A stretch of DNA of 64,000 nucleotides. Origin: a virus. The first letter of the stretch is position 1. Each line of letters opens with the position of its first letter. The stretch is taken from positions 15,013-79,012 of IMG/VR virus record IMGVR_UViG_3300010412_000004, one strand, 5' to 3'. Under the pieces are notes generated by a model. That model was given only the letters and a program-made list of their open reading frames with translations, searched no databases and had not been told where the DNA came from. Both the position numbers and the translations under genes were made by a program. Below are positions 3,603 through 33,209 of this stretch, piece by piece.

Positions 3603-4166
3603 TTATTTTTCAAGATAATAATACAACTGCCTTACAAGTCTACAATCATACATGGCGTCATGAAGAGCTGTTTTATCAGGAATTATTCCACAGGCTTTGA
3701 GTACCGTTTCAAGTTTGAAGTTGGGAAGGAGTGATCTTTTATCTGCTAATGCCCATGCCATAATGGACATCATATCAAGATAGGGCCACCAGAAGAAAGA
3801 GTTGAAGAAGTTGTCACCATGAGTGATCCAAAGTGTTCTACAGAAGTTGTAATCAAATTTGGCATTATATGCGATAAAGAGCATCTTGTCTTCTTTATTA
3901 AATTTGTCTACTCTCTCCTCAAGCCACGCACCAAATAATTCTTTAAGTTCTATTTGGGATAAAGGGAAATCTCTTATTTGTCTATCAGTATATGGACACA
4001 GTTTTACGGCCTCTGGATCTATTTTTGCATCTTTTGGAGGTCTGGCTTTTTCATTGAACATTCCTCTGTATTTACCATCTTCATCATAGATAGCTGATAA
4101 CTGCCAAATGTGATAATCCCTATCATTCTTTCCTGTCGTCTCTACGTCTATGAAGCAGAGTTTCAT
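3603..4166 (-). CDS. DEDDh 3'-5' exonuclease (DnaQ-like)
   Basis: IDVETTG, AYNAKFDYNF, HDAMYD motifs. Confidence 0.9.
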   Translation of the reverse strand: MKLCFIDVETTGKNDRDYHIWQLSAIYDEDGKYRGMFNEKARPPKDAKIDPEAVKLCPYTDRQIRDFPLSQIELKELFGAWLEERVDKFNKEDKMLFIAYNAKFDYNFCRTLWITHGDNFFNSFFWWPYLDMMSIMAWALADKRSLLPNFKLETVLKACGIIPDKTALHDAMYDCRLVRQLYYYLEK

Positions 4167-4329
4167 CTGATATCTCCTTTATTACCTCCAAAAGATAGTA
4201 GTGAAAATCTCCCTCAGGTCCTACCCAGAAGTAAGACATCATTCTAGGAGCCTTAAGGGAATTTAGGAATTGTATTCTTTCTCTTCCAGGTTTACCATGT
4301 CCTGGATTACCTGCTAAATATAATATCAT
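4123..4329 (-). CDS. Small protein, TGT/DpdA N-terminal-like mini-paralog A
   Basis: MILYLAG...RMMSYF pattern shared with three other small ORFs. Confidence 0.6.
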   Translation of the reverse strand: MILYLAGNPGHGKPGRERIQFLNSLKAPRMMSYFWVGPEGDFHYYLLEVIKEISDETLLHRRRDDRKE

Positions 4330-4508
4330 AAGGGTGTAGAAAGAATGCGGCGAATATGATGAGCAATATAATCAATATGGTCATCTAACCACTCTGCATA
4401 TTCTTCTATTACAGCCTTGTCGTCTTGAGTCAAAGGGATATCCTCCTCCTCACAATGACGGTAAAAATCTGCAAGGAGATCCATAAATTTTTTCATCCTT
4501 ATTCCTCC

Positions 4509-7139
4509 TTAATAATTTAAATCATAAATTTTGTTACTCTTTTTACCTACCCATTCCTCTTCTTTCCTAATTACTTCTTCCTTCAAATACCAATTTCCAT
4601 TAATAGGAGTGAACTCAAACTCCATTTCAAGTGGTACTATTATCCATTTATATTTATCCCTTATATCTTTAGTTGCTACCTGTTCTATTGTTTCACATAC
4701 CATATCTTGTTCTGGTGGGTATGTGTCCGTTATCATACTATCATGTATTTGTCCAGGTTGTCCACTCTCCCATCCCTCTTCTATGGATATTTGGTCAATC
4801 TTATTACATGACCAAAGTAGACAATGGAATGCCGTACCTTGAATAGGGGTGTTGATTATGATATTTCTGGTTAAATATCCAGACCTTCTATGACCAAAGA
4901 AAGTTTCTACATATCCTGTTTGTAGATATTCTTTAATTACCTTTTCCTGCCATCTTTTAGTATATTTATATTTGTCCCAGTAGGCTTTTTCTACTTCTTT
5001 ACAATGATCCTCAAATCTAGGATATGTACCTATATTTTTTGACATTAGGTGGTCTAACATTGGCTGACCTTCTGTTGTGGTCAGTCCTCCTTCAACTACA
5101 TTTCTCCATAGATTTTCAGCACATGCCTTGTACCAAGATCCATAGAGTTGAGGGAATGTCCAATTATTTTTTCCATAGAATCTAACCTTAGAGTCCACAA
5201 GTTTTGGTAGAAGTAGAAATAATTCACAGCATACGTCTCTGTGCATATCCGTACCTTTTTGGTAAAGATATTTTATCCACTCAGGATCTTCTGTGTAGCA
5301 CCCAGCTATTCTAACTTCCATGGAGGAATAATCACTCTCTATAAATCTAAAATCCTCCGAGGGTTTAATTCCTGACCTGCAATATTCTTTTGCTTCCTCA
5401 TCTCTCACAGGGATATTGTGGATATTAGGATCACTTGAGCTACTTCTAAAAGTTCTAGCTGTTGTAAGATTATAAAAGGGATTGATTTTGCCCTCGAACT
5501 CCTCTTGGAAGAATTGATGGAGGTAGGTGTCTCGTATTTTTTTAAGTTTTCTCCACTTTAGTATTAGATTAGTAAAGTTTGAATTTATTGCAGAAAGGGA
5601 CTCTTCATCAGTAGAGTATCCCTTTTTAGTTTCTCTGGTAGGTTTGTATTTGAGTAGGTCATATAGAAGATATTGGAGGTCTTTGCTAGAGTTATGATTT
5701 ATAGGCTTTCCTGTGGAGGTTCTAAATTTATCAGCCTCGTTAGATTTGCTAATTAAACCATCTATCAAATCCATCCTTTTGGTTATGCCCTCTTTGATAT
5801 CATTTAGATAGTTTGTGTCTACATTAAATCCTCTTAGTTGCATATGGTTAAAAGTGTGAATGGCATCATGAAATAATTCGTAGGCCTCTAATAGATGAGG
5901 ATCTTTTTGTATTGTTGCCTTTTGTCTTAGGGTGAGGCTTTTACAAAATTTGGAATCCAGTCCACAATATAACATTGTTTCGTGAGAAGGAGCATCTTGA
6001 ATTTTGTTGTATTCCTCATTTTCTGTTTTAAGGAAAGGTTCAACTTCGTCTTCATAACCTTCTATTCCAAAGTTAATATAGGTTTGAAATTTGAGTCCTT
6101 TAGTTTCCTGTCTTGAGTCAATTATGTGGGAGGCTATCATTGAGCACCAGTCCACTCCTTTAGGATCACATCCAAGTATTACCTTAGACCAGAGCATTTC
6201 AAATGCCATATTGTGGGCACTCTTTTTTATTCTGTCTTCTTCCCAAATTTCTATCAGCATTTTAGTTATTATATTAAGCTCTTCATTTTTCCAATATCCT
6301 GGTTTTTGAAAAGGGAAGGAGAAGGTATCTGTATTAGTAGATATACTAGCATAGTATATTTTATGGTCAGGTTTGAATGGTTTTTTGCCTGTGGTTTCAT
6401 AATCAATCGCAATAGAAGGTTTATGTATCAATACGTTTCTAAGACTTTCCTCAACTTCATTTAGATTAGTGAGTACTCGAACTTTTTTTTCCATATTCTC
6501 ATAATCGGGAAATTTATCTATCTTACTCCATTCTACAGCGTTATCCAAATCTCTAAGATAAGTGGTCCAGAGGTTATCATTCTTTGAGTCCCTATAAGGA
6601 GCCGAAGGGTGATACAGAGGGATTATGTATGATTTAAATTTTTGATCTGGTATATTATATCCTCTCCATCTTGTGATGTTCCTTTTTTTGAATCTATACA
6701 TAAAAAAGGATTTGGTCGCCGCACTACCCATCAACCAGATGTATTTAGGTTTAGTATCCTCAATGGCTTTTAATACCCAGGGCCTACAGAATTTTATCTC
6801 CCTCTCTAATGGGGTTCTGTTCTTAGGTGGTCTACAGTTTATGGCATTAATCTTATTACAGTCCTCATGAAGATTAATTCCTCTTTCCTCGAGCAGGCGT
6901 TCAAAAAATTGTCCTACATCCCCTACGAGCTCGTCGTTTAGGGAGTCTTCAGTGGCTCCTGGACTTTCGGCTATTATTAATATATCTCTGTAACCTTTAC
7001 CACCCACAGGTATTTTAGGACTTTTTACATTCTTATTCAAACCACATTTATTGCAATCTGGTTCTCCAGGTTTATCGTAAAGTATTTGGTCCTTGCTCCT
7101 AGGAGCTTTTTCTCTTTTGAATTTGAAGAATGTTTTCAT
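4509..7139 (-). CDS. Family A DNA polymerase with N-terminal family-4 uracil-DNA-glycosylase-like domain and 3'-5' exonuclease
   Basis: UDG: CxxC, AESPG, NCRPPKNRTP, HPSA; exo: IDYETTG, AHNMAFE, YCGLDS; pol: RSSSSDPNIHNIP, SDYSSMEVR, FPQLYG, IHDS. Confidence 0.92.
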   Translation of the reverse strand: MKTFFKFKREKAPRSKDQILYDKPGEPDCNKCGLNKNVKSPKIPVGGKGYRDILIIAESPGATEDSLNDELVGDVGQFFERLLEERGINLHEDCNKINAINCRPPKNRTPLEREIKFCRPWVLKAIEDTKPKYIWLMGSAATKSFFMYRFKKRNITRWRGYNIPDQKFKSYIIPLYHPSAPYRDSKNDNLWTTYLRDLDNAVEWSKIDKFPDYENMEKKVRVLTNLNEVEESLRNVLIHKPSIAIDYETTGKKPFKPDHKIYYASISTNTDTFSFPFQKPGYWKNEELNIITKMLIEIWEEDRIKKSAHNMAFEMLWSKVILGCDPKGVDWCSMIASHIIDSRQETKGLKFQTYINFGIEGYEDEVEPFLKTENEEYNKIQDAPSHETMLYCGLDSKFCKSLTLRQKATIQKDPHLLEAYELFHDAIHTFNHMQLRGFNVDTNYLNDIKEGITKRMDLIDGLISKSNEADKFRTSTGKPINHNSSKDLQYLLYDLLKYKPTRETKKGYSTDEESLSAINSNFTNLILKWRKLKKIRDTYLHQFFQEEFEGKINPFYNLTTARTFRSSSSDPNIHNIPVRDEEAKEYCRSGIKPSEDFRFIESDYSSMEVRIAGCYTEDPEWIKYLYQKGTDMHRDVCCELFLLLPKLVDSKVRFYGKNNWTFPQLYGSWYKACAENLWRNVVEGGLTTTEGQPMLDHLMSKNIGTYPRFEDHCKEVEKAYWDKYKYTKRWQEKVIKEYLQTGYVETFFGHRRSGYLTRNIIINTPIQGTAFHCLLWSCNKIDQISIEEGWESGQPGQIHDSMITDTYPPEQDMVCETIEQVATKDIRDKYKWIIVPLEMEFEFTPINGNWYLKEEVIRKEEEWVGKKSNKIYDLNY

Positions 7140-7399
7140 CTCACCGCGCTCAGAGTTTTAATGGATACATATTTAGGAAGAATTATCACTTTTACCTTAG
7201 GATCCTTAAGTCCTTTTTTTAATTGTTCTACTGTTTTTTTAAGATATTGTATAGGAACATCTTTTGAAAATTGGACTATAATTTTGTCCTTTGGATAGAG
7301 TTTTATTACATCTCCTAAAAGGAGAGAACCATTTAGATCTCTTACTTCGAACTCATTTACTTTTTCATCAATCATTGTCTCTTGTTCTTCTGATGTCAT
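7136..7399 (-). CDS. Hypothetical protein
   Basis: ATGA overlap with polymerase start. Confidence 0.55.
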   Translation of the reverse strand: MTSEEQETMIDEKVNEFEVRDLNGSLLLGDVIKLYPKDKIIVQFSKDVPIQYLKKTVEQLKKGLKDPKVKVIILPKYVSIKTLSAVR

Positions 7400-7556
7400 C
7401 TTCAGATATCTCCGCCCTTTTGTAATATTTAAGTGTTATTACGGCCTTTTTAGTATAAAAGAAGGCAATAAATCTGTTCTTTATTCCTTCCTTATATAGA
7501 GTTTTTTCCCTTTTGGATTGTAGTCCAGCAGGAACTCCTGCAAAATAGATTATCAT
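7368..7556 (-). CDS. Small protein, TGT/DpdA N-terminal-like mini-paralog B
   Basis: MIIYFAG...NRFIAFF. Confidence 0.6.
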   Translation of the reverse strand: MIIYFAGVPAGLQSKREKTLYKEGIKNRFIAFFYTKKAVITLKYYKRAEISEDDIRRTRDND

Positions 7557-7559
7557 AAC

Positions 7560-8582
7560 TTAAGATGGTAATGCTATAACGTGGTTAAACCCTTTTCTGG
7601 AGAATTTAGCTACATTCTCTCCAATAACCATTACCGTTGCTTTCTCTAATATTTGACTCAGAAATATTGGATTAATATCAAAGTTAAATGAACCTTTGTC
7701 CAATTTTTCCACGTCTATAATTTTATTAATCCATCCAATATCTTTCTTTGCCCTTACTCGTATTTGGTTCTTAGATACTTCAATCTTAACTTGCTTATCT
7801 ATATCATGTTTTCCATCCGTCATGAAGGTAATAGAATCAATGTTTGTTTTTAGGTCCATTGGCATTTCTACATCAATCCCTTCTACTTCTAAATATTTCT
7901 CAACTTCAGGATACTCTCCCTCCATGGTTCGTGATGAAAAGGTTACTCCGTCCTCTGTCTTGAAGTGAGCCCATCTGTCCGAAATGTGGAAGTACTTGAG
8001 GTTCTCATAGTTAGTGAGCTCTTTAATATTTCTTGCAGGAATGAGGGTGTCCATTGAGGTTTCTTTATTAAGGGTATATTTGCTAATTCTTGATTCATCA
8101 CTACTAACTAAAGAGTCTCCTTTGATTCTCACACAGGTTGCAATTCCAGAAGTCATATCAGTGGAGGCCGAAAACATACATAGGGACATACCTTCAAGGA
8201 AGTCCTTAGGCAATTCTTCCCATTTTCCTTCAAGGGATCTTAGGTTGAGAAGTTGTATCATTTCTTCTGCCTGCCCTCCAGCCATTATAGATATGCCGGC
8301 CTCCGTTTTAGAAGTTCTAATAGAGAGCTCGTCCTCCTTTTTTTCCATCGTTACTGTGGCTTCTCCTTGGATACTCATAAGAGTTTTATAGAGCTCCTCC
8401 GCCGACACACTACATTGGAAGTCTGTTTTGAGAGGATGACTGATACAGATTTCATCATTGTATGTCATTACTTCACTTCCAGTAAAGATAAAATGGGTGA
8501 ACTGCTCAATAATATCTCTTTTAGCCAATCCTGGCTTGACACTTTGAAATACCTTAACTAAGTTAGATTTTTCTGCTATCAT
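7560..8582 (-). CDS. DNA sliding clamp, beta (DnaN)-like
   Basis: 340 aa; three-domain pattern incl. SSDESRIS, FSSRTMEGEYP, FDINPIFLSQIL; clamp loader nearby. Confidence 0.75.
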   Translation of the reverse strand: MIAEKSNLVKVFQSVKPGLAKRDIIEQFTHFIFTGSEVMTYNDEICISHPLKTDFQCSVSAEELYKTLMSIQGEATVTMEKKEDELSIRTSKTEAGISIMAGGQAEEMIQLLNLRSLEGKWEELPKDFLEGMSLCMFSASTDMTSGIATCVRIKGDSLVSSDESRISKYTLNKETSMDTLIPARNIKELTNYENLKYFHISDRWAHFKTEDGVTFSSRTMEGEYPEVEKYLEVEGIDVEMPMDLKTNIDSITFMTDGKHDIDKQVKIEVSKNQIRVRAKKDIGWINKIIDVEKLDKGSFNFDINPIFLSQILEKATVMVIGENVAKFSRKGFNHVIALPS

Positions 8583-8787
8583 TCTTTCTCTCCTTCTCCT
8601 TTGAAAGGTTGAACATTACTCTGTCAAAAGGTTCTCCTGTAAGACCTTCCCAACTTTTTCTTCTAAATTGAAATCCTCCTAGGTCAAGATCAAAATAGGA
8701 AAAGAGCACATTTCTTTGTTTTCCTTCGGAGGCATTTATATGAGCTTCCCAAAGGTCAGAACCTACAGCCGCGAAATATATTATCAT
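8563..8787 (-). CDS. Small protein, TGT/DpdA N-terminal-like mini-paralog C
   Basis: MIIYFAA...NVLFSYF. Confidence 0.6.
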   Translation of the reverse strand: MIIYFAAVGSDLWEAHINASEGKQRNVLFSYFDLDLGGFQFRRKSWEGLTGEPFDRVMFNLSKEKERKNDSRKI

Positions 8788-8999
8788 GGGAGTATAATTC
8801 CGCCCTTTGTTCTTTTCATAGTATTAAAGGCCTTAACCTTTTCTCCTTTTCTCAAGGCCTTTAATACTTCATTTACTGAGTGTAATTGTCTTCCATCAGA
8901 TTGTCTTACTACTACTGCTCCGTTTTTTAAATCTCTACTTATTTTATTTATCAGATTTACTGCATCTATTGTCTCCTGGTCCGAAGGTTTTTTCATCAT
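8784..8999 (-). CDS. Hypothetical protein
   Basis: Overlapping operon ORF with AAGGAG RBS. Confidence 0.5.
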   Translation of the reverse strand: MMKKPSDQETIDAVNLINKISRDLKNGAVVVRQSDGRQLHSVNEVLKALRKGEKVKAFNTMKRTKGGIILP

Positions 9000-9162
9000 G
9001 CATCTCCTTTACCTTCAATATATTTACCGCTCCTTTATTATGAAAAAAGGACACCAGGCGGTAATATCCTGGGTAGCCTTTCTTAAATACAAATTCTTTC
9101 ATCTTCTCCTCAGCTTTAAGATTGTTCATTTGAGGGAAGTTACCTGCTTGGTAGATTATCAT
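8944..9162 (-). CDS. Small protein, TGT/DpdA N-terminal-like mini-paralog D
   Basis: MIIYQAG...RLVSFF; ATGA-coupled to the transglycosylase stop. Confidence 0.6.
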   Translation of the reverse strand: MIIYQAGNFPQMNNLKAEEKMKEFVFKKGYPGYYRLVSFFHNKGAVNILKVKEMHDEKTFGPGDNRCSKSDK

Positions 9163-10406
9163 TTGAATAAATCAAATTTTTCTTGTTTATGTTGTTTGAA
9201 GGCCCAAGGCCACTTTGGCACACTATTTTGTAGGTCTATATAGTACATGATATTGAGCTCATCCCTGAGTTTGTAGCTGTTGGCGAGTCCTTTTTCTATT
9301 ACTATTTCTATTTCTCTGGATTTATCTCCCTTTTTGCCTTTAATCCATCTTTCATTCTCTCCAAGTGTATAGTCTCCTGGAACAACTTTGTATTCTGATT
9401 TTCCAAGTTTATATCCTTTTTTATTGAAGTAATCTAAGATGTATAACCGTTCCGCCTTGGAGTAGGTAAGAATATGTTTCCCTTCAATCTCCTTCTTTTG
9501 AGGAGATCTATCTGATACGGTAACATTGTGAGCATTTCTGGCATAATCAAATTTACCGCCTCTGGTTTTTGGTACACATACGATCCCATATTTACCAAAT
9601 TTAACCCAACTGGTACTGTCAACACTATACCAAGGGTACCTTGTAAGTAATCCTGCCGAAGTAACTGCAAATCCATGAACTTTAACTTTTGGCATTCCCA
9701 TGTCATCTGTGAGCATCTCACTCCATATCTTATCTAATCCTTGGTATATCACATTTTCTGGATTAGGTATAATTCCTCCTATGGCAATATAATCATGTCC
9801 CCTATCTAGATACATTTTTAACCATTCTGGGGAATTACCAAAGTGCCATACTGGAATAGGTTTTAGTCCTTTGCTTTCCATATATTGTTGGTTGTACCAA
9901 GTTTCTTCTGCATTATTGATCACATCTAGGTTAGCGTAGACTTCTATATAAGGGAGGTATTTTTTGATGAAAAGAACATACTGCCTTCTATATTTGATAT
10001 AATGATCAGATTTTAGATAAGAGTAATCATCATTCTTTCTGTCACCAAGGAAACTTCCCATATAGGTATGTGCTCCTCCCTTATGGGACCTCATGTGTTT
10101 ATTATAGAGGCTAGGTGCTCCACTATCTACGAATATTTTAAGGTCTTTTGGAGTAGTTACGGAGTCAGGTTTTAATTGAGATACTTCATTTTCTACCGTT
10201 CTTATTTTTTCTGGAACTGTTCCTTTTTCCACCATTACCCTCATATCATATTTTTGAATTGTTTTGATGTAATCTCCGGTTCTATCAAACCTTATACCAA
10301 GGTCTAGTACTCTTTTTACCTCATCAGTACTTGGCCAAATATTACTTCTCCCGGCGTGTTCTCTGGAGAATCCTCTAGGATATATCTTCATAGTGCTTTT
10401 ATACAA
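9159..10406 (-). CDS. TGT-fold base-exchange transglycosylase (DpdA-like, 7-deazaguanine insertion into DNA)
   Basis: FVDSGA, ANLDVI, PIPVWH, IAIGG, VHGFA, SVDSTSW: TGT barrel with catalytic Asp positions; clustered with folE/queD/queE. Confidence 0.78.
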   Translation of the reverse strand: MYKSTMKIYPRGFSREHAGRSNIWPSTDEVKRVLDLGIRFDRTGDYIKTIQKYDMRVMVEKGTVPEKIRTVENEVSQLKPDSVTTPKDLKIFVDSGAPSLYNKHMRSHKGGAHTYMGSFLGDRKNDDYSYLKSDHYIKYRRQYVLFIKKYLPYIEVYANLDVINNAEETWYNQQYMESKGLKPIPVWHFGNSPEWLKMYLDRGHDYIAIGGIIPNPENVIYQGLDKIWSEMLTDDMGMPKVKVHGFAVTSAGLLTRYPWYSVDSTSWVKFGKYGIVCVPKTRGGKFDYARNAHNVTVSDRSPQKKEIEGKHILTYSKAERLYILDYFNKKGYKLGKSEYKVVPGDYTLGENERWIKGKKGDKSREIEIVIEKGLANSYKLRDELNIMYYIDLQNSVPKWPWAFKQHKQEKFDLFK

Positions 10407-11410
10407 TCCAACATATTTTTAATGGCTTGACTTCCATCTAAAATCATTTTATTTTGTAGTTTATTAAGATATTTTCTAAAGTATTTCTCCTGTTTTTCAT
10501 CTCTTAATATATTAATGATTTTATCCACACACTCGTCAAAGGTTTTGAATCTAAAAGGTCGTGGATATAATTCTTCATAACTCAGTCTATTAGGAACTAA
10601 AGGGATACAACCAGACATCACCGATTCCTGCATAGCTATTCCCCAGGTTTCCTGTCTGGAAAAAGATACAGCTATTTTTGATGCCTGTAGTATATCATAA
10701 TACTTCTCTTTGGTATTACATATCAACTTAGTTTTTACAAAATCATAATGAGGGAAAATAGGTTTAATTGTCTTCTCTAAGGCGTCAAAATAGGAGGGTT
10801 CTTTTTCAGGATCTAGTCTATGAGGAAATACAATCATATTCATTTTATGGGTATCTACTAACCACTCTGGGTATATTGGCAGACCGGTAACTGCTATTTT
10901 ATGACTCAACACTTCTCTTTTTTCCATTAACAATCTTTTATGAAAATCAGTAGCCACAAAAATTTTGTCAACAAGAGTTGTCCATCCTTTTTCTATATGA
11001 GATGCCCAGTAGTCCATCCCCATTCTATGTAGAAAATCATGTTCATCATATGTGCCTGCATGAAGTATTCCACATATATTTATATCCAATCTTAAAGCAT
11101 CTCTAATGTAGGCCAACATTTCAATTCCAGGAAACCATAAATCATGAAATAAAAAGGTATCCTTATCTCTTATTACTCCCTTATCAATTAACCTACATAT
11201 TTCTCTGAGTTGGGCGGCCTTAAATAAGTTCGTTCCTATAATGTCAAGAAAAGATCCTTGCCGTATTTTGTGTGTAATAGGGTCAGGGTAAATAGTGATA
11301 TAATCTTTTTCTACCTCGAGCCCATTTGCTTGGAACTCTCTTGGGAACCATTTATTCCACTGAGCAGAGTATCTTTCCTCTAAACTTTCTATGGGCACAT
11401 TAATTATCAT
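10388..11410 (-). CDS. GT-B (GT4-like) glycosyltransferase in DNA-modification locus
   Basis: FPHRLDPEK, QETWGIAMQES (E-x7-E), PNRLSYEEL. Confidence 0.85.
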   Translation of the reverse strand: MIINVPIESLEERYSAQWNKWFPREFQANGLEVEKDYITIYPDPITHKIRQGSFLDIIGTNLFKAAQLREICRLIDKGVIRDKDTFLFHDLWFPGIEMLAYIRDALRLDINICGILHAGTYDEHDFLHRMGMDYWASHIEKGWTTLVDKIFVATDFHKRLLMEKREVLSHKIAVTGLPIYPEWLVDTHKMNMIVFPHRLDPEKEPSYFDALEKTIKPIFPHYDFVKTKLICNTKEKYYDILQASKIAVSFSRQETWGIAMQESVMSGCIPLVPNRLSYEELYPRPFRFKTFDECVDKIINILRDEKQEKYFRKYLNKLQNKMILDGSQAIKNMLDCIKAL

Positions 11411-11473
11411 AATTCGCCTCTTTGTTTCAATTAAACACTAAACTCATTGAAATTACAAGATAAATTTTTAGGT

Positions 11474-12835
11474 TTAAATTATTCTTAACCTAGCACATAT
11501 GGCATAGAATATAGCCGCATCTTCTATGGGGAGATGGTAATCTTTAGTATCCTCCTTAATTGCCTCAGCGATCTTCCATCCATTTCTATTGCTTAAATAT
11601 GTCATCATATATTCAATGTAGATACTTTTTAATTTATAAAGTTGAAACCATTTTATATCCTCCTCTTTTATGTCCCTTTTCGTATGTATTCTATCAAGCA
11701 AAAAAGAGTCAGGCATAAAACTTGGTATTAGTCTCATCGGTCTATTGTTTAGGGTATGTCCTTTGAGGTGAGAGGTTTCATAAATCTTTGTTCCATGATA
11801 TACCTGAAAGAATTGACCAAGACCTCCTTCGGTTCCATTTGTTTGTACTCTTCCATAAAGGTCATTCATTTTAAACCCATATTTAGATAAGAATTCCCCA
11901 GTGGTGTTTAAAGTCTTTAACGTTTCACCAGGATAGAATGTCATGGTTAACCAAAAGATGGGCACATCACACTTCTCAGCCAAATCTATGCATCGTGCGA
12001 CAGGTGACTTACCCATATCACTTCCTAGGTTCTTATCAGCAGTTTCCAGACCTACCTCGATTAATCTTACTCCTGCATCATGAAGTATTTTGGTACCATA
12101 CATAGAGATAAACCTATTTACTGTGGAAACTTCTCCTAAGGCTATGAAATTGAAGCCACCCATTTGGTATGCCCAATGTAATATGTTGTATGCCCTTTGA
12201 GTATCAAAAAAGAAATCTTCATCAGTGAAATGAATATTGTGGTATCCAAAATATTTACACCTTACGAGCATAGTGTGGATTTGTTCTAAATCCAAAACTA
12301 TTCTTTTTCTGTTTGTATTTACTGTGGAAGGACAGAAGGAGCAACCTCTTGGACATCCATATGAAGTAAAGAGAGGGTATACCTTTCCCGAATATTTTCT
12401 CAAGTGCATATCACAATCGCTCAACGTGAGGAATCTTAAATATTGATATGTATAAGGATAGTAGAACATTCCATCTTTAATCATATAATCTTCCACCTTA
12501 AACATATCTAAATCTAGACTTTGGATGAGGGGATAGTATCCAAAAAAGCTGGGTTTAACAGGTAGAAATTTATCAAGCATTTTGCAGAGTTCGATTTGAG
12601 GGTAGGACCATAGAGCTACTAAATAATTATTAGATTTTGGTAGGTCATCTATTCCTGCCATGGTGAAATTTTCTTCTAACCATACAATCTCTTCTTCTTT
12701 ATTCATTAGGTAATAATTGTAGAGTATATAAGGTAAGTAGCAAAAACTACCCCTATTGACTTCAGGAGAGGTTGGGTCAATTATTACTATATCCGCCTTA
12801 GTAGGGCGTATCCTCCCATTCTGCTCCATTTTCAT
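11474..12835 (-). CDS. Radical SAM enzyme with probable N-terminal cobalamin-binding domain (class B-like)
   Basis: TSYGCPRGCSFC (CxxxCxxC), FTDEDFF, VGLET, FYPGET; about 150-aa Rossmann-like N-terminus. Confidence 0.8.
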   Translation of the reverse strand: MKMEQNGRIRPTKADIVIIDPTSPEVNRGSFCYLPYILYNYYLMNKEEEIVWLEENFTMAGIDDLPKSNNYLVALWSYPQIELCKMLDKFLPVKPSFFGYYPLIQSLDLDMFKVEDYMIKDGMFYYPYTYQYLRFLTLSDCDMHLRKYSGKVYPLFTSYGCPRGCSFCPSTVNTNRKRIVLDLEQIHTMLVRCKYFGYHNIHFTDEDFFFDTQRAYNILHWAYQMGGFNFIALGEVSTVNRFISMYGTKILHDAGVRLIEVGLETADKNLGSDMGKSPVARCIDLAEKCDVPIFWLTMTFYPGETLKTLNTTGEFLSKYGFKMNDLYGRVQTNGTEGGLGQFFQVYHGTKIYETSHLKGHTLNNRPMRLIPSFMPDSFLLDRIHTKRDIKEEDIKWFQLYKLKSIYIEYMMTYLSNRNGWKIAEAIKEDTKDYHLPIEDAAIFYAICARLRII

Positions 12836-13139
12836 TATCCTCCATAACTCTTACATAACAGGCCTTAAATTGCTCAGCTAATTGTTTACATATCATTTCA
12901 CAACTGGTTCTGCCGAGAAATCTATCCCAATAGGTTATCATGATGAAATCGTCTACCTGTCTCTTCATTTCAATAAATTCTATGTCCCTATCATCATGGT
13001 GAACCTCCCATTTCATCCTTACATGGAAGATGTGACGGTGTGGATATTTTAAATGAGATTGAGTTTCTATGGGACATTCTGGCCAATGATGTGTAGCTGT
13101 AAAACTTGTATTGATTACAATTTTAGTGGACATCCACAT
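12798..13139 (-). CDS. dpdL: T-fold QueD paralog, DpdL-type (putative CDG decarboxylase)
   Basis: LKYPHRHIF matches the LxxxHRHxF signature I recall for DpdL (vs CxxxHGH of QueD); DRDIEF, SCE, EDNENGA. Confidence 0.68.
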   Translation of the reverse strand: MWMSTKIVINTSFTATHHWPECPIETQSHLKYPHRHIFHVRMKWEVHHDDRDIEFIEMKRQVDDFIMITYWDRFLGRTSCEMICKQLAEQFKACYVRVMEDNENGAEWEDTPY

Positions 13140-13312: not shown

Positions 13313-13894
13313 TTATCCTCCCATTATTAAGGACATTTCAATCCATCTCATGGCTTCATCACGAGCTTTAAGGTCATCCATTAAAACTCCACTCAAAGCT
13401 GAAGTTGTCATACCAGACCCACTTTGTTGTTTAACCCCTCTACATCTCATACAACCGTGGATAGCTCGCATGGCCACTATGGTACCATATGGTTTAATGT
13501 GACGGTCAAATTGTTTGATTACATCATCACATAATGTTTCCTGTAGTTGTGGTCTAAGGGAGTAATGATTGATTAGGCGTGCAGGTTTTGATGCACCTAC
13601 GAGAAGTTCTTTAGGTATGTATCCTAACCACGCTTTTCCTTCAAAGGGTAGAAAATGGTGGGAACACCATGATACAAAGTGTATGGTGTCGAACATGATA
13701 AGTTGCTTGTAATCTCGATCATTTGGGAAGGCTTTGAAATCTGTAAATTCCTTCCCTACATTCGCAAATATTTCTTGGTACATTCGCTCAAGTCTTTGGG
13801 GTGTTTCACGAAGGTTGGGGTCAGATAAATCCAACCCCAACTCTTCGCTGATGACTTTACTGAAGTACCAAGCCATCGACTGGCTCATGGTCAC
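13313..13894 (-). CDS. folE: GTP cyclohydrolase I
   Basis: ETPQR, SWCSHHFLPFEG, RPQLQE, HGCMRCRGV, TTS. Confidence 0.93.
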   Translation of the reverse strand: MTMSQSMAWYFSKVISEELGLDLSDPNLRETPQRLERMYQEIFANVGKEFTDFKAFPNDRDYKQLIMFDTIHFVSWCSHHFLPFEGKAWLGYIPKELLVGASKPARLINHYSLRPQLQETLCDDVIKQFDRHIKPYGTIVAMRAIHGCMRCRGVKQQSGSGMTTSALSGVLMDDLKARDEAMRWIEMSLIMGG

Positions 13895-31794: not shown

Positions 31795-32118
31795 ATGTGA
31801 CGACCACCTGAGTATGGAAATGGTGGTCTGGCATACGAAACTTGAATCAATTTATCCAGCCCACCTTCCACTCATACCATTCCAATTCGAAATACTGGAA
31901 CCACGAAGGGACGAGAAGGGTTGGGTCAGCCCAAACCTGACCTTCCCGTTGATGATATGGGAGACCGACCAGGTGTACCGAACCTTCCGCATCGCTCAGT
32001 TTGACCAGACCGCCCCATATGTAGCCAGACCATACCAGCTCAACCCATACCGAATCATATTTATTAAATATTATAAATTTACTAACTATTAGTAATTTAT
32101 TAAGTATGTTGTATTTAC

Positions 32119-32205
32119 TTACTAAATAGTATTTAGTAAATATCATTTAGTAAATACTTGTATATTTACTAAATATTATAAAATTTAATAAATGTTATTT
32201 AGTAA
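32119..32205. repeat. ATTTAGTAA(A) repeat cluster, left
   Basis: Five copies in both orientations at 32119, 32131, 32145, 32165, 32197. Confidence 0.75.
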
Positions 32206-32230
32206 TTAAATAAATTAAAATTACTTAATT

Positions 32231-32355
32231 TATGACAAAAAAAGTCATACTTTTTGACAAAAAATGTCAAAGCATTTATGTAATAATAACAAGTATTTAA
32301 CTAAAATTAAATACTTATTTAGAAAATAAATTGCCTCTTTTGACAAAAAAAGTAA
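32231..32355. promoter_or_regulatory. Operator-like palindromes TGAC-N7-GTCA
   Basis: 32231-32249, 32253-32271 and a partial copy near 32339-32355. Confidence 0.55.
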
Positions 32356-32584
32356 TTAACTTATTTATAGCCATAAAATTATTTTTAAAATAATATGTAA
32401 TTATCTTAAATACTTATACAATTTAAGACTTTGTTTTGTACTTTGTGCATACTTTTTGCAATAGTTATTAGCATGTCAAAGTCAACAGCTATATTAATAT
32501 TGCTCGCTTGCTATAGTGCTTTCGTGCTTGCATTACTTGACTTCTTTACAGTCTACGCGAAGTAGACAGAAAGTGAAGGCAACT

Positions 32585-33031
32585 ATGTTAAGACACGAAA
32601 ACACAATACAGAAAGTCTATGCAATGTATATTGACAAAGCAACGACTTTTAATGAAAAAGAAATTGCTTTACGCAAGTTACATAAACTTTGTGAAAAACA
32701 CAAAGTCAACTTGCATAGACTTGTTAGTGACTGTACTTTAAATATTAACTATGCAGACAAAGTACAGTCAAAAGCTACTTCAAATGCTATGTATGAAGCA
32801 GACAAAGCAAAAAGCAGACGTAGTTTAATAATTGAAATGTTACGTCAAAACATACATAGTAAGGACAGTATTGCAGAAGTACTGTCTGAAGTCTACGAAA
32901 TTGCAGACTTCAAGACAAATAAGAAAGCAGTTGCAGGGACTTTGTATGACTTGCAGACTAACAAAGCATACTTTGACTATAAAGTATGTAAAGACGACAG
33001 ACTTTCTTGCAATTTCAATGTGACTGTCTAA
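32585..33031 (+). CDS. Isolated gene: DUF2786-like N-terminus plus domain paralogous to 23975-24439
   Basis: ATG 32585 after GAAGG; NEKEIALRKLHKLCEKH; SRRSLIIE..NKKAVAGTLYDL; followed by terminator. Confidence 0.75.
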   Translation: MLRHENTIQKVYAMYIDKATTFNEKEIALRKLHKLCEKHKVNLHRLVSDCTLNINYADKVQSKATSNAMYEADKAKSRRSLIIEMLRQNIHSKDSIAEVLSEVYEIADFKTNKKAVAGTLYDLQTNKAYFDYKVCKDDRLSCNFNVTV

Positions 33032-33063
33032 TTGTTAAAAGTAGCACGAAAGCACTTAGCATA

Positions 33064-33104
33064 AAAAAATAAAACACTTTGAAGTCTAAAGTGTTTTATT
33101 TTTT
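33064..33104. terminator. Intrinsic (possibly bidirectional) terminator
   Basis: AAAAAATAAAACACTTT-loop-AAAGTGTTTTATTTTTT. Confidence 0.7.
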
Positions 33105-33144
33105 GCTTGTTTACTGAAGCAAATTTATTTAATAAATAAATAAT

Positions 33145-33209
33145 ATTTAGTAAGTATATAATATTTAGTAAACCCCCCTCAATTTAGTTTATGAAGACCA
33201 TTTAGTAAA
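33145..33209. repeat. ATTTAGTAA(A) repeat cluster, right
   Basis: Copies at 33145, 33163, 33200. Confidence 0.7.

Follow-up and report, generated by a model that had tools for sequence, protein, structure and literature searches.

DpdA, which exchanges guanine in DNA for a 7-deazaguanine base, is the hallmark of this type of DNA modification, an important means by which phages withstand restriction and CRISPR. The efficiency of the enzyme ranges between 0.1% and 100% of G. The closest described systems are the single-chain phage DpdA1 (Escherichia phages CAjan and 9g, Queuovirinae) and the bacterial DpdA of S. Montevideo (PDB 7UI4). In the structure of the bacterial enzyme, the β1/α1 and β2/α2 insertions (Ins1 and Ins2) are peculiar to DpdA and are located on the face that binds DNA or beside the active site, and the authors suggested that they help to recognize the sequence (PMC10164549). 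Phage DpdAs differ in their target motif: CAjan modifies two motifs and iggy GA only (PMC7544227, PMC10484667). Here we describe a phage locus in which this enzyme appears to be encoded in pieces. It is located in a window of 64,000 nucleotides (nt), that is, the whole stretch of DNA analysed, which covers bases 15013-79012 of the 79-kb IMG/VR record IMGVR_UViG_3300010412_000004 and carries, besides dpdA, four small open reading frames (ORFs) termed m1 to m4, or minis.

The DpdA of the window belongs to the same superfamily as the described enzymes and shares their catalytic core, including the DSGA strand and the Asp/His-Gly/Asp residues, as well as their genomic neighbourhood of folE, queD, dpdA, clamp and DNA polymerase genes. 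But unlike single-chain DpdA, in which β1-α1-β2 belongs to the same polypeptide as the core and the gene has no annotated free copies next to it, the window and most of the uncultivated clade around it have a core gene without this unit and 1-5 free paralogous units nearby. These minis are homologous to the first ~43 residues of single-chain DpdA. Based on homology and modelling, the best explanation as a whole, to which we assign a probability of about 0.6, is that the four ORFs are genuine and encode members of a new family of proteins of ~50 amino acids (aa), and that DpdA would be a split enzyme with m4 as its cognate unit and m1-m3 as alternative pieces.

The original prediction had placed four related ORFs at 4123-4329 (m1), 7368-7556 (m2), 8563-8787 (m3) and 8944-9162 (m4). 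All of them are present, on the minus strand and with the sequences quoted, and encode 68, 62, 74 and 72 aa, respectively. A six-frame motif scan of the window returned exactly these four, and a profile search of the whole 79-kb record found the same four and no others. An independent hidden Markov model (HMM), built from 75 foreign family members with none from the window, was run against 946 window ORFs and gave E-values of 5e-14 for m1, 1e-13 for m2, 5e-9 for m4 and 3.5e-6 for m3; the next-best window ORF scored 0.47. Each mini has its own subfamily signature. That of m4 is 'AGNFPQM...YRLVSFF', with a conserved core at residues 1-52 and a tail that overlaps the next ORF. The other three are extra paralogs of the N-terminal unit, with the signatures 'AAVGSD...LFSYFDL.LG.FQFR..SW' (m3), 'AGVPAGLQ..RE...RFIAFFY.KKA.ITLK.YK' (m2) and 'AGNPGHGK.G...MSYFWV..GDF' (m1).

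As had been proposed for one of the minis, m4 is coupled to the transglycosylase gene, its start forming an ATGA overlap with the dpdA stop. The starts of m3 and m1 overlap in the same way with a 71-aa ORF (8784-8999) and a 56-aa ORF (4326-4496), respectively, and m2 starts 4 nt past the clamp stop. Furthermore, each mini overlaps the start of the following gene by 20-56 nt, and none has a Shine-Dalgarno sequence of its own. On the DNA level, likeness among the four is limited to ~24 nt at the start codon, half of which is imposed by the ATGA overlap, and the upstream regions are unrelated. Therefore, the minis are diverged paralogs and not recent DNA repeats. A shared DNA repeat, such as a promoter or start cassette, was also considered and could be ruled out from the same short coding start.

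Scans of the four minis and the three neighbouring small ORFs against Pfam and PHROGs gave nothing meaningful. With a query profile made of the four minis and three from a related contig, we searched 1.84 billion cluster representatives exhaustively using HMMER. This identified 84 cluster representatives at E < 1e-3, 76 of them 39-86 aa long. The mini consensus reads MKIYLAG.PG..RE..W....RLLSYWDI..QF.V..AF.LIK. So far, the family has been found only on uncultivated phage contigs: a tblastn search with a typical mini (P0127) against 50,697 cultured-phage records gave no match at E up to 1, and the region itself has no megablast match among cultured phages. The ESM Atlas entry for m2 has no feature matches, its structure matches are short, unrelated and meaningless, and the model of m2 alone is poor (predicted template modelling score 0.24). 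We then scanned 82 viral loci encoding a relative of the window DpdA for units within 7 kb. Such units, one to five per locus, were present in 72 of them, on the dpdA strand and mostly abutting dpdA. BLAST clustering separated 214 units into distinct subfamilies with about one member per locus (for the 'ATW' type 37 in 36 loci, for the m4 type 11 in 11, for others 10 in 10 and 6 in 6), and therefore a genome carries a non-redundant set of units and not recent duplicates. Each subfamily conserves its own β1/α1 loop and post-β2 segment, and these differ between subfamilies.

The peptides had been said to resemble the first β-α-β unit of the barrel of DpdA and tRNA-guanine transglycosylase (TGT), and profile comparison agrees. 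Using hhalign with a 74-sequence mini profile and a 15-sequence profile of full-length DpdA, including CAjan, R7M and Erebus, residues 1-41 of the minis were aligned to residues 1-43 of the enzyme (97.4%, E 1.1e-11). Positions Y4, A6, R28, L29 and S31 are at least 90% conserved in the 74 minis; A6, L38 and S40 are invariant and Y41 is at least 90% conserved in the 15 full-length enzymes. The near-invariant mini positions (Y4, A6 and the R-L-x-S motif) thereby coincide with the canonical A6, L38, S40 and Y41. In m3, the Gly usually found after A6 is replaced by Ala, at a position outside the conserved set. The pattern given in the original prediction for full-length homologs, MxIYFAG followed by RLxSY/F and then DSGA, is recognizable in the DpdA of CAjan as MNVFMAAV, after about 30 aa ILESYHYV, and then FLDSGAF. 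We take FMPVGT, LxNTYHL and DSGGFQ of the Z. mobilis TGT to be strands β1, β2 and β3, respectively. Our fold comparison, which pairs residue 1 of the window DpdA model with TGT residue ~40, is consistent with this mapping. On that basis, by analogy to the TGT strands, the mini unit would be β1-α1-β2 and the DSGA strand β3.

The large subunit candidate, DpdA itself, is encoded at 9159-10391/10406 on the minus strand. The gene that had been described as coding for a 415-aa enzyme is indeed there, but the TTG at 10406 is the less likely start: translation most likely begins with the ATG at 10391, which shares bases with the stop codon of the glycosyltransferase gene, for a product of 410 aa (database form P0006). 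The core (9159-10136, minus strand; residues ~86-410) holds the DSGA strand, here β3, the remaining strands and the C-terminal domain. It is ~31% identical to the DpdA of Queuovirinae and matches phrog_887 over residues 90-322 (1.2e-37), and D89, D156, H239-G240 and D258 are invariant in 115 homologs. Because sequence searches reached PDB structures only weakly or not at all (phmmer of the window DpdA against PDB sequences gave no significant match, and the DpdA profile hit PDB 7UI4 at E 0.031), a fold comparison was needed. An AlphaFold2 (AF2) monomer model from a 115-row alignment has a predicted local distance difference test score (pLDDT) above 90 for residues 85-410. TGT structures match this model at Z 14-15.6 with a root-mean-square deviation of about 4 Å over 250-270 aligned residues, the best at Z 15.6 and 4.1 Å over 263 residues, so that the window DpdA is modelled with a TGT-like TIM-barrel fold carrying the catalytic-type Asp and His-Gly residues.

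The N-terminal extension in front of this core (10137-10391, minus strand; residues 1-85, MKIYPRG...RTGDY...) looks different. It had been called degenerate, and computation supports this: it scores only E 1.9 against the family HMM, and the AF2 model assigns residues 1-80 a pLDDT of 36-61, showing three helices and a short strand at 2-5 but no β2. The alignment is shallow here, which makes the model no more than suggestive, as low confidence by itself is no proof that a strand is missing. Residues 25-41 weakly match residues 22-38 (α1-β2) of the unit in the homolog P0034 in a position-consistent manner (E 0.003, single comparison). The extension is probably a degenerate m4-type unit plus a linker.

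Splitting of the enzyme becomes apparent when the 120 best homologs of the window DpdA are compared. No fewer than 98 begin within ~15 residues of DSGA and lack the unit (e.g., P0010, MEMTLFVDSGAPSLY, 62% identity). A canonical N-terminal unit is found in 13, such as P0069 and P0034, the latter being an N-terminal fusion of the m4 subfamily (AGNFPQL) to DpdA, and 7 have an odd extension resembling that of the window DpdA. Three others (P0057, P0063, P0073) begin at DSGA and carry the unit at their C-terminus (...WRLYVAGENP...MNRLVSFFY), the arrangement expected from dpdA fusing with the following mini gene. The same arrangement is seen at L015 6988-8245 and L019 6937-8245, and this fusion with the downstream mini gene is reminiscent of a circular permutation. 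Stop-to-stop ORFs of the loci show that miscalled start codons do not account for the N-less forms. At least one free unit lies nearby in 34 of the 38 loci whose DpdA is N-less; of the others, one has a C-terminal fusion and one a divergent candidate immediately downstream, so that 36 of the 38 have a unit nearby or fused. As in the Rosetta-stone pattern of a two-gene enzyme, N-fused, C-fused and N-less homologs all exist. The long matches of the exhaustive search likewise carry at least one unit ahead of the DSGA core, and those of 99-117 aa consist of two units.

Several architectures stand out among these sequences. The metagenomic proteins P0128, P0131, P0170, P0171 and P0211 have 2-4 tandem N-units, each Met-initial, before a single core, and P0130, P0141, P0148 and P0161 are the two-unit proteins of 99-117 aa without a core. 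Units of an 'AGVPGGG' subfamily, which is normally fused, lie just upstream of an N-less dpdA at L028 307-439, L045 about 6790 and L018 231-324, with a reading frame that is interrupted after ~25 residues, perhaps by a frameshift between unit and core that stems from sequencing error, pseudogenisation or programming. Moreover, 24 of the 28 N-fused DpdAs in related loci (L008, L024, L044, L051, L054 and L065 among others) have retained a Met at the place of the N-less gene start, 8-20 residues ahead of DSGA, and several of these genes have a Shine-Dalgarno-like purine-rich run upstream of it. As far as sequence can tell, this Met points either to a second, internal start for an N-less core or to a past fusion of genes, and N-fused dpdA genes might hence also yield an N-less core.

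The four minis are maintained in the closest relatives, which keep both the set and the order of the window: L011 has m4-, m3-, m2- and m1-type units, and L009 and L013 have m4-, m2- and m1-type units. Orthologs of m4 follow immediately downstream of dpdA in L009-L014, L063, L074 and L080; those of m3 are at L011 6908-7066 and L012 8699-8875; those of m2 are at the syntenic place in L009, L011 and L013; and those of m1 are in the same three loci. In the window's sub-clade the m4-type unit is always just downstream of dpdA, and in other sub-clades a unit lies just upstream. Since synonymous divergence (dS) is saturated in most ortholog pairs, we give the ratio of nonsynonymous to synonymous divergence (dN/dS) only where computable, namely 0.11-0.32 for m2 and 0.18 for m1 against L009, and otherwise compare the proportions of nonsynonymous (pN) and synonymous (pS) differences. 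For the m1-m4 orthologs at syntenic places in L009-L013, pN is 0.21-0.41 and pS 0.65-0.92. From these comparisons, the orthologs of the window minis are under purifying selection, and they are not the decaying remnants that had been named beforehand as an alternative.

A prediction of the complex with AlphaFold-multimer had been proposed as a check on whether a mini fills the β1/β2 slot of the barrel. We carried it out for m4, with full-length DpdA (alignment A6) and m4 residues 1-55 (alignment A9), in three runs and with three controls. The slot was filled: the interaction prediction score from aligned errors (ipSAE) was 0.88, 0.83 and 0.88 in the three runs and 0.54 in the best control, the pLDDT of the partner was 82-91, and at least 85% of the contacts were common to the runs. 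The mark used for calibration is reached by 58/80 solved complexes and 2/110 mismatched pairs; these counts are approximate here, as our own alignments were used. The tightest contacts are those of m4 residues 33-39 (YRLVSFF, β2) with DpdA residues 85-89 (KIFVD), and of m4 residues 2-4 (β1) with DpdA residues 255-257 (YSVDS strand). In the resulting strand order β8-β1-β2-β3, m4 has the last barrel strand on one side and the DSGA strand on the other, and it takes this slot even with the enzyme's own extension present. Passing this comparison means that m4 looks like the missing piece in the model and is not proof of binding in the cell.

The claim that DpdA is a split enzyme completed in trans is thus in line with three kinds of evidence, i.e., N-less homologs, fusions at either end and the m4 model, which together predict that a mini completes the enzyme. 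Each mini would be a free-standing first quarter of the DpdA TIM barrel, made up of β1, the β1/α1 loop, α1, β2 and the start of α2. In this lineage, DpdA would be split such that the large gene provides β3-β8, the catalytic aspartates and the C-terminal domain, and the first two barrel strands would be supplied in trans by the mini-protein. The unit translationally coupled to dpdA, m4, would be the cognate one and close the barrel by filling the gap from its last strand to the DSGA strand, and the fused extension of the window DpdA would be a decayed copy of the m4 subfamily. For m4, we regard this arrangement, as read from homology and the complex model, as likely. We are more tentative about m1-m3. 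They are members of three other conserved subfamilies, which retain the strands facing the core and vary in the loops that correspond to those lining the DNA-binding face of solved DpdA. Their most likely role would be docking in the same slot of other core copies, which might yield isoenzymes with a different DNA-context preference, and thereby a wider coverage of G. Such swapping of modules is conceivable, though we would not bet on it. More speculative by a shade is its generalization, in which one core with interchangeable quarter-barrel subunits is widespread in uncultivated phages, and the subfamily-specific loops would reprogramme the G contexts to be replaced by 7-deazaguanine.

A number of points weigh against the full explanation. 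The pass in the complex prediction may reflect the model's memory of intact TGT and TIM barrels in the PDB, and the AF2 monomer sets DpdA's own residues 2-5 at the β1 position, albeit with low confidence. There is a single core gene with a single slot for four units; a search of the genome for a second DpdA-like core that could partner the extra minis found none. Among 28 related phages with an intact fused N-unit, 26 still carry free minis, and the extra units are therefore not needed merely to complete the barrel. The 2-4 tandem units in one chain seen in some DpdAs are awkward for mutually exclusive docking, and AF2 of the three-unit P0128 (41-row alignment) packs only the proximal unit, units 1 and 2 having a pLDDT of 33-44. 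But the alignment over those units is nearly empty, so this model is uninformative on the extra units; a homolog search with the unit region of P0128 found two relatives only. Finally, m1-m3 of the window lineage are spread out among replication genes and do not share an upstream gene to which they are coupled, which could point to another role.

Most of these points fit an alternative that we consider rather unlikely, yet the most serious one, in which m4 alone is a DpdA subunit and m1-m3 are paralogs recruited to another job. They could compete for the slot and thereby regulate or time DpdA, tether the core to the replication proteins encoded ahead of them, or assemble with one another into a separate small β/α domain. 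One core with one slot, the translational coupling of m1-m3 to different genes of the replication module, the extra units retained beside fused ones and the tandem-unit proteins with only the proximal unit packed are all expected if m4 is the only subunit. The same is true of the distribution in the window's clade, where the m4 type is present in every locus and other mini types in some. Set against this, the strands facing the core are retained in every subfamily, as are the residues at the strand ends that do not vary in the N-unit of the catalytic enzyme itself, and units are fused to DpdA cores or to each other, no domain besides units and DSGA core having been noted among the inspected matches of the exhaustive search. 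Furthermore, more distant phages have all their units in a tight array directly flanking dpdA and not among replication genes, and a lone mini is not predicted to fold.

It is improbable that the window DpdA is instead complete and active alone through its own extension, the minis being dispensable leftovers or neutral duplicates of the 5' end. Such self-sufficiency would agree with the modelled position of residues 2-5, with the weak likeness of the extension to a genuine N-unit, and with minis that lack a Shine-Dalgarno sequence and have tails running into the next genes. But the extension fails the family HMM that the minis pass and is modelled poorly and without β2, m4 occupies the slot of the complex model despite it, and 98 of the 120 close homologs have no N-unit at all. 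In addition, pN of the minis stays far below pS across phages whose DpdAs are only 35-64% identical. That the minis are decoys, look-alikes of the first quarter of a host TGT, or of the DpdA of a bacterial Dpd restriction system, that would interfere with how the host enzyme folds or assembles, would suit small early-region phage proteins resembling part of an enzyme family that hosts also use, but is scarcely credible, as their closest relatives are the N-units of phage DpdA itself, they are fused to the phage core, N-less phage cores need such a unit, and their genomic linkage to phage dpdA is strict.

The left third of the window is a single long minus-strand operon of replication and DNA-modification genes. 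Its listed order begins with folE (13313-13894), a queD-like gene (12798-13139) and a gene for a radical-SAM protein of 453 aa (11474-12835), followed by a GT-B-like glycosyltransferase gene (10388-11410) with a weak match to PF00534, whose stop overlaps the dpdA start. The glycosyltransferase and radical-SAM genes (10388-12835), inserted between queD/folE and dpdA, may mean further hypermodification of the deazaguanine base. Downstream of dpdA, the order is m4, the 71-aa ORF, which starts inside m4, and m3, then a sliding-clamp-like gene of 340 aa (7560-8582), m2, an 87-aa ORF (7136-7399), a family-A polymerase gene (4509-7139), the 56-aa ORF, m1 and a DEDD exonuclease gene (3603-4166), all on the minus strand. 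The interleaving of the other minis with clamp, polymerase and exonuclease genes that had been pointed out is therefore evident from the gene order. The clamp-like gene has no Pfam match and is syntenic with the 'DNA polymerase beta subunit' gene that adjoins dpdA in the phages CAjan and R7M. Cultured Queuovirinae have the order folE, dpdA, clamp, polymerase in common. The polymerase carries an N-terminal domain of the uracil-DNA glycosylase superfamily (PF03167) at residues 52-198, preceding the 3'-5' exonuclease and polymerase domains. The three small ORFs of 71, 87 and 56 aa, which have no family match, alternate with the minis in a chain of overlapping, translationally coupled genes.

It had also been stated that several words are avoided at 32-33 kb of the window. 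Observed and expected counts bear this out for an island at 32052-33172, an AT-rich region of 1.1 kb at the GC-skew switch between two gene blocks, in which GG/CC occurs 6 times (36.5 expected), GAT/ATC 3 times (39.3 expected) and GAG/CTC twice (13.7 expected), and GC is enriched 2.1-fold. Several avoided G contexts are compatible with more than one DpdA target context, but the depletion could equally reflect avoidance of host restriction sites. A tie between the island and the minis is conjecture.

If correct, a split DpdA would explain why most homologs in a large uncultivated clade look N-terminally truncated, and it would represent a rare natural TIM-barrel enzyme assembled from a quarter-barrel fragment, which bears on barrel evolution and enzyme engineering. 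Annotation pipelines miss mini genes of ~50 aa and would mis-score N-less DpdA genes as fragments. The minis also offer a handle on sequence-context specificity, by swapping a mini and reading out the modified motif. If modules are indeed swapped, the outcome would be a specificity-subunit system built from pieces of a catalytic barrel, which could allow broader or complete modification of the genome.

Hetero-oligomers of paralogous products are known in the TGT family from the eukaryotic heterodimer of QTRT1 and QTRT2 (PDB 7NQ4, 7B2I), and it is QTRT1 that gives the match to the window DpdA core at Z 15.6 reported above. But QTRT2 is a whole-barrel paralog beside a complete barrel, whereas the mini is a quarter-barrel fragment predicted to sit inside the catalytic barrel. 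A TGT-family enzyme naturally encoded in two genes is the split archaeal tRNA-guanine transglycosylase, where the split parts the catalytic domain from the C-terminal RNA-binding domains, the barrel is uncut and multiple alternative pieces are not known. Should modules be swapped, HsdS of type I restriction-modification systems would be a functional analogy only: one catalytic core is likewise served by alternative paralogous specificity subunits, but HsdS has an unrelated fold and binds DNA as a subunit of its own rather than as part of the catalytic domain. Pieces of (βα)2 size that complete or build a (β/α)8 barrel non-covalently have been described for HisF/HisA halves and de novo sTIM11 quarters (PMC13137295 and others). 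These fragments are engineered or inferred to be ancestral, whereas the mini comes from a natural gene under selection, of which a genome carries several paralogs. Our literature search found no earlier description of a split DpdA or of natural quarter-barrel complementation, and the papers defining DpdA1-4 and the DpdA structure make no mention of a split enzyme or small partner ORFs. The enzyme family is thus already known; what would be new, going by the sequences and models, is a split inside the barrel, a family of free quarter-barrel genes and the presence of multiple paralogs of this unit in one genome.

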